A stretch of DNA of 64,000 nt from a phage, in the sequence record PZ179882.1. One strand, 5' to 3'. Position numbers and translations under genes: made by a program. Shown one piece after another: positions 26,202-34,866 of this stretch; positions within the stretch are counted from its first letter, which is position 1, and each line of letters begins with the position of its first letter. Under the pieces are notes generated by a model. That model saw only the letters and a program-made list of their open reading frames with translations. It was not told the origin of the DNA and searched no databases.

Positions 26202-26429
26202 TCATTTTGGTTTACCTTCTTTAACGAAATCAGGATAAGGATAAAATCCTGAATAAAATCCTTCGCCTTTATGATTGACGCATCCTTTATTAGAGCAATA
26301 GCACCAATAATCGAAATCACAAGCCATTTCATCATTACATAAAGCAAAAACAACTGGCCATTCACACTTTTCGCAGTGGGCATTTTTAAGAATACTAGTT
26401 TGGCTCATAACCATGTAACCTTTAAACAA
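26202..26429 (-). CDS. Cys-rich small protein
   Basis: ORF track 75 aa; 11 cysteines; preferred over overlapping hydrophobic frame 26198..26383. Confidence 0.45.
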   Translation of the reverse strand: MFKGYMVMSQTSILKNAHCEKCEWPVVFALCNDEMACDFDYWCYCSNKGCVNHKGEGFYSGFYPYPDFVKEGKPK

Positions 26430-31091: not shown

Positions 31092-31894
<803 letters not shown>

Positions 31895-32350
31895 TTAAAA
31901 GAGGCTGTTCATTATTCGGTAAAGTGAAGGGCCCATCACATATTGCCACTGAGTACGAGGAATAAGGGCAAAAGCATCCATCTCTGGAATCATAACACCA
32001 TCTTTATTTTCAAAATAAGACTCGCAATGGCAATTTCTAAACATCTCATGCTCTACTGGAATCGTATAATAAAATAACTGTAAGTCTTTATTACTAGAAT
32101 ATTTAAATACACCTAGGTCTTCTAGAAGGTCTGGATTATAATTGCTAAAACCAGTCTCTTCTAAACATTCTCTTCGTGCTGCATCTAGTGCGTTTAAATC
32201 AGAATTTTCTACACGGCCTTTTGGAATATCCCAGCGATGTGCCATCATTCCAGGCTTACGAGAACCAGTAACCCGTCCCATGAATAAATCTTTATCTTCT
32301 GTCATAAAGATAATACCAGCTGATAATGTTTTCATTTTAATTTCCTGCAT
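31895..32350 (-). CDS. nudE: Nudix hydrolase
   Basis: 151 aa; Nudix box ...AARRECLEETGF; adjacent to e as T4 e.1. Confidence 0.75.
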   Translation of the reverse strand: MQEIKMKTLSAGIIFMTEDKDLFMGRVTGSRKPGMMAHRWDIPKGRVENSDLNALDAARRECLEETGFSNYNPDLLEDLGVFKYSSNKDLQLFYYTIPVEHEMFRNCHCESYFENKDGVMIPEMDAFALIPRTQWQYVMGPSLYRIMNSLF

Positions 32351-32820
32351 TCAATGATAAAGTTATTTAAATTTTGAGTATATTTCTTTTCATCAAAAAT
32401 CTTTTGTTGTCTGCGTAGCCGCCATGGCATTTCGATGAACACACACCATATTCCTGATAGTATTGCTGCTGTCAAAATATTAACAAGTATGATTAAAAGA
32501 ATCCAATCTCCCGTTCTGCCTACTGGACTTTCTCCAAAGAAGCAAAATACAAATGATGTCACAGGAAAACTAATAATGTACCACAGAATCATAATTTTAT
32601 CTGTGAACCAATCAGCGTTCGTTAATTTAGCGCGACCATTATGAATACATACGAATTTATCATCTGTTGCAGTAGATGGCTTAACTGGTTGATATCCCAT
32701 TCTAAACTCCCTAATCAGCAAATTTTTCATATCTTCGGAACAGCCATTCCAGTCAACTCTATCAACTGGAATGCCATCATCCCCATCATCTAAATCATAC
32801 CAGCGAGTTTTTAAAATCAT
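32332..32820 (-). CDS. Membrane protein with C-terminal ECRK motif
   Basis: 162 aa; TM segments; C-terminus NNFIIECRKLK. Confidence 0.5.
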   Translation of the reverse strand: MILKTRWYDLDDGDDGIPVDRVDWNGCSEDMKNLLIREFRMGYQPVKPSTATDDKFVCIHNGRAKLTNADWFTDKIMILWYIISFPVTSFVFCFFGESPVGRTGDWILLIILVNILTAAILSGIWCVFIEMPWRLRRQQKIFDEKKYTQNLNNFIIECRKLK

Positions 32821-33179
32821 CTGATTTTCCTACAATCACTCACAAACTCTTTCATTGATTCATTTTCAATATAAGACATGTAGTTATTATATTCTTTTAA
32901 TTGTATTTTGTAATCCTTTTTTCTTTGCCAATTTATTTTAAAATTATCATAATGAAAATATAGAATGATACAAAAGAATGAAAATAATGAAATAATTTTA
33001 GTATAGCGAAGTTCACTCCAAACTTCTATTATATTTACTGTGCCATCGATGTTTAAAATAAGACAGTCAATTAACAATCCAAAAAGACTACCCGCAAGAG
33101 CTGCAGCCAACGCCACAGCAAAAATTAAAAATGACTCAGGAAGCGAATATTTGACTTTATTTAGTTTTGGCTTTTGCAT
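32817..33179 (-). CDS. Membrane protein with C-terminal DCRK motif
   Basis: 120 aa; two TM segments; C-terminus MKEFVSDCRKIR. Confidence 0.5.
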   Translation of the reverse strand: MQKPKLNKVKYSLPESFLIFAVALAAALAGSLFGLLIDCLILNIDGTVNIIEVWSELRYTKIISLFSFFCIILYFHYDNFKINWQRKKDYKIQLKEYNNYMSYIENESMKEFVSDCRKIR

Positions 33180-33574
33180 CGTGATTCCTTAACAAATTTC
33201 ATAATTTCATCAAATTCATACGCAGCAAGTTTAAGCTGATATTCCTTTTTAATCTTTTTACACTGTGCTTTCCAATCACGTACGCGTTTACGATAATGCC
33301 TTCCTTGATACCAGTATCCTACCCAATTTACAGGTACTAATAAAAATGGAACTATTAATGGAAGAATTAGCATTAATACAAGTATTTCGCCAGAATCAAT
33401 ATCAGTCATAACATCTAAAACACCTCCAATAATCAATAGAATTACAAATGATATGAGTATAACAGGACCCATTAATACATCGGTAGAAATTATCTGGCGC
33501 TTTAGTTCATACTTCAAAGGTTTACTTGGAAGGTATAGTGATGGCTTTGACATATTCTCTGCATTCCTTAACAA
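33161..33574 (-). CDS. Membrane protein with C-terminal FVKESRCK motif
   Basis: 137 aa; two TM segments; start probably internal. Confidence 0.5.
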   Translation of the reverse strand: MLRNAENMSKPSLYLPSKPLKYELKRQIISTDVLMGPVILISFVILLIIGGVLDVMTDIDSGEILVLMLILPLIVPFLLVPVNWVGYWYQGRHYRKRVRDWKAQCKKIKKEYQLKLAAYEFDEIMKFVKESRCKSQN

Positions 33575-34130
33575 ATTTTTCTAGTAATAAATCGCTTTCA
33601 AAATTAGGATTTTCTACGAATTTATCAAAAAGATCATCAACAATAGTAAAGATATTCTTTTTACTAAGAATACGCTTATTTTCATATTTTGTTTCAGAGT
33701 CAACTATAAGAGTAAAGAAATATTTCTTTCCCTGAAATTTTACTGTAGTATCAATATAAAATAAATTTGACTTTTGTAAATTACGTCTAAAACACGCGTC
33801 ACTTAAACTATAAATGCCAAGATAATCATAATCGTCGTTTAAATAACAAACTGTCCATTCAGGAGAAATGAAATCAGTAAATTCAACATCAAAATCACAT
33901 GTCAATGAATGAATTGATTCAATACTGTTAATAAGTATTCCAGGACGTATTAAGGACTTTTTACCTCTATAAAATCTTCCAGAAAGACTTTCGTCAGTTT
34001 CATACGAAGACCCCCAATAGTAATTACGCCCTTCTGCCATACGTTTAAGAGCATTTAGTAATTGGTCTGGAACATCAACATGTCTTTGGAACTCTTCAAA
34101 CATTGAATTGAAATCATTTTGCATTCTCAT
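33522..34130 (-). CDS. Soluble protein with C-terminal KFVKECR motif
   Basis: ORF track 202 aa. Confidence 0.55.
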   Translation of the reverse strand: MRMQNDFNSMFEEFQRHVDVPDQLLNALKRMAEGRNYYWGSSYETDESLSGRFYRGKKSLIRPGILINSIESIHSLTCDFDVEFTDFISPEWTVCYLNDDYDYLGIYSLSDACFRRNLQKSNLFYIDTTVKFQGKKYFFTLIVDSETKYENKRILSKKNIFTIVDDLFDKFVENPNFESDLLLEKFVKECREYVKAITIPSK

Positions 34131-34149
34131 TCCTATTTACTCCAAGTAT

Positions 34150-34167
34150 AAGGGGCCGAAGCCCCTT
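34150..34167. terminator. Hairpin AAGGGGC-CGAA-GCCCCTT
   Basis: 7-bp GC-rich stem between two minus-strand genes; weak U tract. Confidence 0.4.
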
Positions 34168-34171
34168 ATCA

Positions 34172-34765
34172 TTATTTCAGAGAATTAATGTATTCCTGAA
34201 CATCAGCAGAGGTAGTTTCAACCCCAGAAATATTACCGTTAAAGGTTTCAACTCGAGCAAGGGTATCTTCAATATCAACCTTAGTCAGTGCTGCAATTTC
34301 AACTACATCATCGGCAGTACTAATTCCAAGGGCATTTGCTGCACGAGTTTCACGGATATATTCCAATTTAACCGCAAGTTCTTGACGAGCATCATCTAAC
34401 TCAACTACTTTCTTGGCGATTTCAATTCGCATTTCAGCATAACCGTCAGCCTTAGTAGTCAACTGCTCAGCTGTTCGACGATATAGTAAACCGAGTTTAG
34501 CATGCATTGTTACATCTTGGCCTTCGGAAAGAAGTTTACGAATTTCACGCTCTTTTGATTCGGCCTGTCGATTCTTTTCGATAACAAGTTCACGAATACG
34601 TTTTTCTTCGTTAATAGATTTAACAGAAGCAGTTTTTAGATCTTTAATTTTATCAAGTAGTTTTGCTGCTGCAGCAGTATACTGTTCTTCGACAGATAGA
34701 TTTTTAGCCATAGCAGAACCAAGTTTAGTGCGAATAAACTCAACAATTTTCTTCAATGTGTTCAT
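34172..34765 (-). CDS. Coiled-coil protein (weak PspA/IM30-like character)
   Basis: 197 aa; extended heptad-rich helices. Confidence 0.5.
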
Positions 34766-34866
34766 AGTATTTCCTTAGGTTAATTGAGATTTAAAATCCG
34801 TAGGAGTATAATACTCTATCGTCAAATTATAGGCTCATAATATCTCAATCATGAGCCTGCGTAAAC

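Follow-up and report, generated by a model that had tools for sequence, protein, structure and literature searches.

A C-terminal tail shared by adjacent e.x proteins at the gene boundaries of a T4-like phage

In T4-type phages, the intergenic transcription signals known as PeSLs combine a sigma-70-type promoter with a terminator hairpin, and recombination between neighbouring copies deletes, inserts or replaces small non-essential open reading frames (ORFs) while the expression signals are kept (PMC2839356; PMC4122927, Comeau et al. 2014). Here we describe a comparable arrangement in a 64,000-nucleotide stretch of phage DNA (sequence record PZ179882.1; the whole stretch is called the window below), in which the four adjacent genes e.5, e.4, e.3 and e.2 end in related codons that encode a short common peptide and contain the predicted Shine-Dalgarno sequence (SD) of the next gene. 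Like PeSLs, these e.x boundaries are short repeats between ORFs in a variable region, and whole-ORF insertions and deletions, of e.2 and e.4, occur at the repeats. Unlike PeSLs, the e.x repeat lies inside coding sequence, where a translation signal (SD plus ATG) is fused to a conserved C-terminal peptide. The e.x junctions also lack a promoter excess and a stable hairpin, the sole hairpin lying upstream of e.5, and the recombinant e.x proteins share a peptide tag, whereas PeSL exchange yields none. The e.x boundary repeat acts like a PeSL but is not one.

Three other systems invite comparison. As in translationally coupled, overlapping cistrons (ATGA or TAATG), the e.x genes overlap from stop to start and the SD lies in the upstream gene. 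Coupling at stop-start overlaps is ordinary in T4 and in many operons; what sets the e.x genes apart is a conserved peptide of 9-12 residues, which coupling neither requires nor produces. In build, the e.x membrane proteins resemble class II holins and the T4 superinfection-immunity protein Imm, with 100-160 amino acids, two transmembrane (TM) helices, both termini in the cytoplasm (N-in/C-in) and a charged tail, but they have no sequence relationship to such families in Pfam, PHROGs or NCBIfam, and we know of no family of this type that shares a tail with an adjacent soluble protein. Finally, the tail is reminiscent of the C-terminal targeting sequences of MinD and FtsA in being short, probably helical, partly amphipathic, placed at the extreme C-terminus and found on a soluble protein too. 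It differs from them in its many conserved acidic residues (the polar face of the putative helix carries conserved E/D), its invariant Cys-Arg and its marginal amphipathicity.

The e.5 to e.2 proteins and their common tail

The window is a Tequatrovirus (T4-like) genome, and positions 31800-34800 are 95-97% identical in nucleotide sequence to about 500 Tequatrovirus genomes, with a range of 91-97% for the e.2-e.5 genes. GC content is 33-36%, and the genes here lie on the minus strand. Synteny with T4 and phage W143 and PHROG profiles identified four ORFs at 32332-34130 as the orthologues of T4 e.5, e.4, e.3 and e.2; the gene order e.6-e.5-e.4-e.3-e.2-nudE-e, on the early strand, is identical in the window, T4 and W143. 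Whole-profile matches were to PHROG 2607 for e.5 (6e-107), 2604 for e.4 (7e-71), 2330 for e.3 (1e-59) and 2203 for e.2 (1e-77). The initial annotation had described four adjacent ORFs with related C-terminal strings at this place, and these strings are indeed present.

e.5 (33522..34130, minus strand, as are all features below) encodes a soluble protein of 202 amino acids that ends in LLLEKFVKECREYVKAITIPSK. Its tail motif, F186-V-K-E-C-R-E192 (33555..33575; ttt gtt AAG GAA tgc aga gaa, followed by t and the ATG of e.4), includes the SD-like hexamers AAGGAA and AGAGAA. e.4 (33161..33553) encodes a protein with two TM helices and a basic, predicted cytoplasmic tail of 54 residues ending in EIMKFVKESRCKSQN, with the degenerate motif F120-V-K-E-S-R-C126 (33176..33196; ttt gtt AAG GAA tca cgA TGc), whose DNA holds both the SD (AAGGAA) and the ATG (33179-33177) of e.3. 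e.3 (32817..33179; 120 amino acids) likewise has two TM helices, followed by a predicted cytoplasmic tail of 43 residues that ends in ENESMKEFVSDCRKIR and contains F112-V-S-D-C-R-K118 (32826..32846; ttt gtg agt gat tgt AGG AAA); AGGAAA in this motif is the SD of e.2, and the e.2 ATG (32820-32818) overlaps the e.3 stop codon as ATGA. e.2 (32332..32820; 162 amino acids, two TM helices) ends in NLNNFIIECRKLK, and its motif, F154-I-I-E-C-R-K160 (32341..32361; ttt atc att gaa tgc AGG AAA), supplies the AGGAAA that serves as SD of nudE, with the nudE ATG at 32335-32333. Among the sizes first given for the three membrane proteins, 162 and 120 amino acids stand, while the third, e.4, has 130 from ATG rather than 137 from TTG: its start is the ATG at 33553 (MSKPSL...), as in T4 and all 98 database homologues, among which the e.4 tail is invariant.

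Hydropathy analysis found two hydrophobic helices each in e.2 (residues 76-96 and 106-130), e.3 (18-41 and 60-77) and e.4 (30-50 and 58-76), and no hydrophobic segment in e.5. e.2 is built from a 75-residue N-terminal soluble part, the two TM helices and a 32-residue basic tail; ORF133c of phage RB69 is a further two-TM protein with the same hairpin-plus-tail build. Because the N-termini and tails of e.2, e.3 and e.4 are basic and their loops acidic, the positive-inside rule indicates that these are N-in/C-in inner-membrane proteins with cytoplasmic tails. The proposed division into three two-TM membrane proteins and a soluble neighbour was therefore borne out by hydropathy and charge.

In extended form, the tail consensus reads [L/M/I]-x-x-F-[V/I]-x-[E/D]-C-[R/K]; its hydrophobic residues occupy positions 1, 4, 5 and 8, which in a helix would share one face. 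Among the 164 ORFs of the window (23,452 amino acids), the strict pattern [FILV][VI].[ED]CR[KE] matches e.2, e.3 and e.5 only; in 2000 residue shuffles the mean was 0.0085 matches and the maximum 1, against the 3 observed. The looser F[VI].[ED].R also picks up e.4 and a single unrelated match, and 5 matches occurred in just 0.25% of shuffles. The unrelated match, the sole loose off-target one in the window, is a small Cys-rich ORF of the tk region (26202-26429) that ends in DFVKEGKPK with an embedded SD and has no Cys-Arg; we judged it to be due to chance. In the complete RB69 genome (167.6 kb), [FILVM][VI].[ED]CR matches only e.5, e.3, ORF133c and e.2, always at the C-terminus and in one cluster. 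The tails were also recovered from DNA alone in a search for direct repeats, as 16 exact nucleotides (nt) between e.4 and e.5 and as 30 nt at 70% between e.2 and e.5, and T4-type e.3 and e.2 tails are identical at about 24 of 27 nt. The FV-x-E/D-CRK motif initially ascribed to all four proteins holds for e.2, e.3 and e.5. In e.4, the Cys comes two residues after the canonical position and is encoded by the TG of the e.3 start codon (cgATGc); ESRCK is therefore not positionally homologous to ECRK, and e.4 is a degenerate member of the form F-V-K-E-x-R.

How far the proteins are related outside the tail differs between pairs. From their sequences, e.3 and e.4 are true paralogues: their PHROGs cross-match (E=0.008), Smith-Waterman alignment gives z=6.7, and hhalign aligns the tail over 33 columns with P=2e-4. 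A Dhakavirus e.3 profile matches e.3 over its full length (98%, E=4e-14) and e.4 over the N-terminus and both TM helices (93.5%, E=2e-7). In contrast, profile comparison with hhalign showed that e.2 and ORF133c share with e.3 only the last 12-17 residues, and the same program detected no homology between e.2 and e.4 outside the tail. The tail is the only stretch of e.5 that aligns with e.3 when the single sequences are compared by Smith-Waterman, and the protein at the e.5 position in Dhakavirus matches e.5 essentially in the tail only. The first description of these proteins as otherwise distinct thus fits e.2, ORF133c and e.5, which have just the tail in common with e.3, and fails for the full-length paralogues e.3 and e.4. 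The tail is a module on at least three bodies without detectable relationship. As one of these is soluble e.5, duplication of hairpin genes alone cannot explain the e.5 tail.

Orthologues from Tequatro-, Mosig-, Dhaka- and Gaprivervirus all retain the motif, the conservation that the initial annotation had proposed to look for. In Mosigvirus the tails read QFIMECREYVKA in e.5 (a protein about 48% identical), EFVKEIRCKS in e.4, NFIKECRK in e.3 and RFITECRNLR in e.2, and the extra member, RB69 ORF133c, has NFIKECRGK, ending NLENFIKECRGK. The soluble protein at the e.5 position of Dhaka- and Gaprivervirus carries the motif RFIAECREYAKE and ends KLNRFIAECREYAKE; their e.3 orthologue ends LETFIKECKS, and e.4 of SP18 has EFIKEVRNGTA, ending EEFIKEVRNGTA. 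Between Tequatro- and Mosigvirus the motif segment is the best conserved part of the protein, at 75% versus 40-50% elsewhere in e.5, 71% versus 49-57% in e.4 and 54% versus 16-31% in e.2. In e.3, 11 columns are invariant across the four genera, the motif F and C among them. An exhaustive phmmer search with e.5 against 1.84 billion representative proteins returned 5 matches, all of them T-even phage proteins or fragments, and neither tblastn (with e.5, e.4, Mosigvirus e.3, Dhakavirus e.3, ORF133c and the Dhakavirus e.5-position protein) nor scans of IMG/VR found anything beyond the four genera.

The codons of the motif have changed while its residues have not. Across 37 DNA records the Arg is encoded by AGA, AGG, CGA, CGT or CGC, the Cys by TGT or TGC and the Phe by TTT or TTC, with zero amino-acid replacements at F, C and R within each orthologue group. 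The Dhakavirus e.5-type tail reads gaa tgc cgt gaa, and its SD (GAGG) lies three codons downstream of an intact motif. Because synonymous codons have turned over in four genera and the motif is retained in Dhakavirus with the SD outside it, these comparisons show the tail peptide itself to be under apparent purifying selection. Two junctions of the same cluster, ORF132c to e.2 and ORF130c to nudE, are coupled yet free of the motif; therefore coupling alone does not force the motif. Conservation at the amino-acid level fits a functional peptide, which may be, for example, an interaction surface.

The names and family assignments of these proteins say little about what they do. Pfam, NCBIfam and PHROGs gave no functional family for e.2-e.5, a PDB sequence search with e.5 returned nothing below E=0.5, and a full-text literature search by gene name found nothing on the function of e.2-e.5. 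All database homologues of e.4 and e.2 carry the precomputed Pfam families PF26873 (e.4) and PF26896 (e.2); as these accessions are separate, the tail is not a single family in Pfam. Our Pfam scan of the window proteins did not return either of them, and e.3 homologues carry no Pfam match. Some NCBI records call e.3 or e.4 a 'sulfurtransferase', and one calls e.3 a 'DNA primase'; neither name has NCBIfam or Pfam support, and both look like propagated misannotations. The start of e.5 may be a second ATG (MQNDF...) instead of MRMQ; the older T4 record L13089, with 603 nt for the gene, uses this second ATG. The SD-start region of e.5 (34117-34134; AGGAATGAGAATGCAAAA) is 83% identical to the e.4/e.3 junction (33172-33189; AGGAATCACGATGCAAAA).

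Gene junctions and whole-gene exchange

At all four junctions in the window, AAGGAA or AGGAAA lies within the upstream ORF, 5-10 nt before the next ATG, and the stop codon overlaps or abuts the start. The e.5 to e.4 junction reads gtt AAGGAA tgcagagaat ATG, with a gene overlap of 32 nt, and the e.4 to e.3 junction gtt AAGGAA tcacg ATG, with an overlap of 19 nt; e.3 to e.2 (tgt AGGAAA atcag ATGA) and e.2 to nudE (tgc AGGAAA ttaaa ATGA) are ATGA overlaps. In Tequatro- and Mosigvirus, the SD is formed by the motif codons for K-E (AAGGAA), R-K (AGGAAA) or R-G (cGAGGAaa), so that, as predicted from these sequences, the motif codons double as the SD of the next cistron. This is part of the reason why the same DNA is repeated at each gene boundary. 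Lying in the variable e-to-tRNA region of T-even phages, the genes e.5-e.4-e.3-e.2-nudE form one string; they overlap and, we infer, are coupled in translation.

Signals at the level of RNA or transcription were not found at the junctions. The four junction RNAs contain no stable or shared hairpin (fold z = +1.6, -0.7, -1.9 and +1.7 versus shuffles); they have no more structure than shuffles, which gives no sign of coupling through the melting of a hairpin. Rfam gave no matches in the region, and with neither such matches nor junction hairpins an RNA-level explanation of the conservation was ruled out. A promoter consensus scan of the string found 23 promoter-like sites, compared with 18.4 +/- 4.0 in shuffles, and none at the junctions, and the T4 record L13089 annotates promoters before e.8, e.7 and e.6 and none between e.5 (msp4) and nudE (msp8). 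A transcription signal of the PeSL kind was ruled out as an explanation by this lack of promoter excess.

Comparison of related phages revealed gains and losses of entire genes at the repeated ends. e.2 is precisely missing in T2, RB33 and the IMG/VR contig L009 (T2-type phages), and e.3 in these e.2-less phages ends ...EFV(S/I)DCRKLK, a hybrid that is of e.3 type up to TGCAGGAAA and then of e.2/nudE type (TTAAAATGAAAACA). The same hybrid end occurs in the largest e.3 database cluster (163 members), and about 64 of some 505 Tequatrovirus records cover the e.2-e.4 query incompletely. In Dhaka- and Gaprivervirus, e.4 is present in SP18 and missing in dhabil and JS10, with the crossover in a shared AAG-GAGGTTC-AATG SD-ATG segment. 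At the level of sequence comparison, these cases show that whole-gene insertions or deletions, of e.2 in Tequatrovirus and of e.4 in Dhaka- and Gaprivervirus, cross over inside the repeated gene ends. Together with the sharing of nothing more than a tail, they uphold the earlier suggestion that recombination has joined differing 5' parts to one shared 3' end. Both the role of the motif codons as SD of the next gene and that of the boundary repeats as points of crossover are additions to the initial annotation.

Other rearrangements were seen in the same genes. Phages UFV05/06 carry an in-frame e.4::e.2 chimera, found in 5 contigs (UFV06: L019 2775-3095; protein P0098) and formed at a 6-nt microhomology (TCCTGT) in TM1; it joins the e.4 N-terminus and the start of TM1 to the TM1, TM2 and tail of e.2 and loses everything else of e.4, the whole of e.3 and the N-domain of e.2. 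In phage p000v, about 235 nt are missing from within e.3 (L003 4464-4562, compared with L004 4440-4799). The remaining 3' piece (VYASQMIS...NFIKECRK) has the same sequence as intact e.3, lies in frame behind the e.4 stop codon and still provides the next gene with its SD and ATG. Neither this deletion nor the UFV05/06 chimera used the tail repeat. In phage BEU50 (L005 3501-3983, UNVERIFIED_ORG), a fusion joins the N-terminal half of e.5 with the C-terminal end of ORF132c and removes e.4, e.3 and about 3 kb. The fusion raised the idea that RB69 ORF132c is an e.5 homologue, and no homology was found; because e.5 and ORF132c lack homology, the fusion is either illegitimate recombination or an assembly artefact.

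T4 itself has an altered e.2. In NC_000866 (about 67652-67960) the gene is annotated with 102 amino acids, and one A is missing from an A-run relative to 32332-32820 of the window: T4 reads ata aaa atc caa tgg aca gaa tag where the window reads ata aaa aat cca atg gac. The rest of T4 e.2, its NNFITECRKLK tail included, continues intact in another frame, and the gene is either a frameshifted pseudogene or the site of a sequencing error or slippage. Forms of e.2 with 102 and 122 amino acids occur in other phages too.

Explanations of the shared tail

We favour, with a probability of roughly 0.6, a reading in which each e.x boundary is three things in one: a selected cytoplasmic tail peptide, the translation start of the next gene and a recombination site. 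All members would have a C-terminal tail module, short and probably helical, on the cytoplasmic side, and the peptide would be a common contact surface by which co-expressed e.x proteins bind one partner or each other; contact through the tail would tether soluble e.5 at the membrane. The motif codons would serve as SD of the next cistron, and the overlapping genes would be translationally coupled. Because every boundary carries nearly identical 15-30 nt, recombination could remove or insert whole genes in frame with their expression signals intact, and recombination at a boundary would be the most economical route by which the unrelated e.5 body gained its tail.

The functional part of this reading is held more loosely. 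Our proposal of a shared docking surface, by which the tail would link e.5 and the hairpin proteins either to a single partner or among themselves, is tentative, and we would give it less than even odds. We think it rather unlikely, if attractive, that the tail is an exchangeable docking tag, by which e.5, or its counterpart in Dhakavirus, as the soluble subunit and a variable set of hairpin proteins assemble through their identical C-terminal helices into a membrane complex on the cytoplasmic face, with the membrane subunits swapped as cassettes. If this were true, it would be the coding-sequence analogue of PeSL shuffling, with each new subunit both expressed and competent for assembly, and the purpose of swapping subunits might be host adaptation or the exclusion of competing phages. 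Two other roles for a conserved C-terminus were ruled out: nascent-peptide stalling at the stop codon, as the motif can lie anywhere between 0 and 14 residues before the stop, and a C-terminal degron, as the ends are charged and not non-polar.

Several observations weigh against the three-in-one reading. The motif is not strict, since the Cys is missing from all e.4 lineages (which have S, I or V) and R is replaced by K in Dhakavirus e.3. Overlapping constraints must account for some of the conservation, namely the next gene's SD, its start codon and its N-terminus, which is read in a different frame. The family is limited to four closely related coliphage genera, and the evolutionary depth of the conservation test is modest. 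The Dhakavirus e.5-position protein has a weak, collinear, mid-protein match of 30 columns to e.5 (64%, E=7e-5) and may be an extremely diverged e.5 orthologue rather than a replaced body. Amphipathicity of the individual tails is weak (p 0.01-0.43, with p < 0.05 in 2/9). AlphaFold2 drew the tails helical at low confidence, with a predicted local distance difference test (pLDDT) score of 35 for e.5 (single sequence) and 50 for e.2 (alignment of 15 sequences); these models are too poor for a helical tail to be more than suggested. The genes are dispensable and often decayed, as in the frameshifted T4 e.2, truncated e.3 forms of 97 amino acids and the p000v e.3 deletion.

The main rival is pure hitch-hiking, in which the hairpin genes were duplicated in tandem, the shared end is the duplicated initiation region of the next gene, and the functionless peptide is kept similar by the SD, start and overlap constraints and by occasional gene conversion. 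Much of the locus looks as this explanation would have it: in Tequatro- and Mosigvirus the motif codons of every copy hold the SD of the following gene, whose start overlaps or abuts, e.3 and e.4 are paralogues, T4-type e.3 and e.2 tails are nearly identical in DNA, and p000v has kept the e.3 3' remnant with motif and SD after losing the rest of that gene. The exact 16-mer shared by e.4 and e.5 tails, which is present in Tequatrovirus and absent from Mosigvirus, suggests local gene conversion. What hitch-hiking leaves unexplained is the pattern of conservation. The SD does not include F, [V/I] or C, and yet neither F nor C varies in the e.3, e.2, ORF133c and e.5 lineages; Arg is retained through five codons, several of which (CGT, CGC) are not SD-like; Dhakavirus e.5-type genes keep the motif although their SD is downstream; and coupled junctions of the same cluster do without it. 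Moreover, e.5 residues 197-202, which overlap the coding sequence of the conserved e.4 N-terminus, are the least conserved in the e.5 frame, at 17% versus 75% for the motif. We consider hitch-hiking alone to be improbable.

A further alternative takes the tail as an in-plane amphipathic membrane-binding helix of the MinD/FtsA type, which would bring e.5 to the membrane without a protein partner and keep the hairpin-protein tails against the inner leaflet. The hydrophobic residues at positions 1, 4, 5 and 8, the helical drawing of the tail in the low-confidence models and the placement of the motif at the extreme C-terminus of a soluble protein encoded beside membrane proteins are all in keeping with it, as is a hydrophobic moment of 0.35-0.69, against about 0.32 in shuffles, that exceeds the shuffle mean in 9/9 tails. 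Individually, however, the moment is non-significant in 7/9 tails, the hydrophobic face comprises four residues only, one of them Cys, and the acidic residues conserved in the motif (E or D ahead of C, often an E following R, and E/N upstream) would be unfavourable on the anionic inner membrane of E. coli. An invariant Cys-Arg on proteins that are already anchored in the membrane would be left unexplained. We regard this alternative as quite unlikely, and the targeting signal that was initially suggested finds no support, given a soluble e.5 with no membrane segment and a tail rich in acidic residues.

Still less likely, in our view by a wide margin, is that e.2, e.3 and e.4 are holin-like or antiholin-like lysis-timing proteins with a class II holin topology and a tail that acts as a cytoplasmic regulatory domain. 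Two TM helices, N-in/C-in topology, a highly charged C-terminal tail and a location two to four genes upstream of lysozyme e would suit such a role. No holin family was matched in Pfam (E <= 1), PHROGs or NCBIfam, however, the same tail on soluble e.5 would go unexplained, and the genes are often lost with viability kept. The T4 holin, t, is encoded elsewhere and is required for lysis, and the e.x genes are transcribed with the early genes, which also counts against this role. Chance resemblance between short basic C-terminal tails is refuted by the shuffle counts, the absence of other matches in 167 kb of RB69 and the conservation across four genera, even though phage genes with an SD embedded in the 3' end often have short tails with many K, R and E residues, and DFVKEGKPK is one loose match of that sort.

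Neighbouring features and significance

The e.5-to-nudE string is limited upstream by a GC-rich hairpin with a GGGGC-UUCG-GCCCC core (34148..34169), between e.6, which lies upstream of e.5, and e.5; a stem-loop is annotated at its position in the T4 record L13089. The last cistron of the string is nudE (31895..32335), which encodes a Nudix hydrolase (Pfam NUDIX E=2e-13), overlaps the e.2 stop codon with its MKTLS start and is followed by the lysozyme gene e. T4 nudE is annotated from MQEIKMKTLS. Phages without e.2 lack the upstream ATG (gat tgc, not gaa tgc), and in them the second ATG is preceded by AGGAAA at 5 nt (L009 4312 and T2, compared with 32333-32350 of the window); for these two reasons the true start, as read from the sequences, is probably MKTLS, which gives a protein of 146 amino acids.

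A second tandem family with a common C-terminus was observed outside the window, just downstream of e.3 in Mosig-, Dhaka- and Gaprivervirus. It consists of 3-5 small soluble ORFs (65-101 amino acids) that end in W-x-(x)-S-S-x-x-C and a stop codon, as in GAWVSSSALC, GGWVASSHTC, QGWVSSSYSC, GFWFTSSMSC and KIWYPSSC, and each ORF is followed by taa, an SD and an ATG (L003 4563-5357, L004 4796-5590, L020 3851-5095 and L021 3794-4833).

About half of T4 genes have no assigned function, and many of these encode small membrane proteins in variable regions. Modular evolution of phages and coupling at overlaps are known, and the e.x boundaries are not a new kind of system; the unusual part, as it appears from these comparisons, is a shared, selected peptide on unrelated bodies. 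The significance is limited by the fact that the genes are dispensable in the laboratory. Nevertheless, a nine-residue module conserved across four genera offers a handle on five or six T4-type genes together, and could be mutated, used as bait or used to define a family. A single sequence that acts as protein tail, ribosome-binding site and recombination target would allow a gene to be dropped in or out in frame with the expression of its neighbours preserved, and would extend the PeSL idea from transcription signals to coding sequence.

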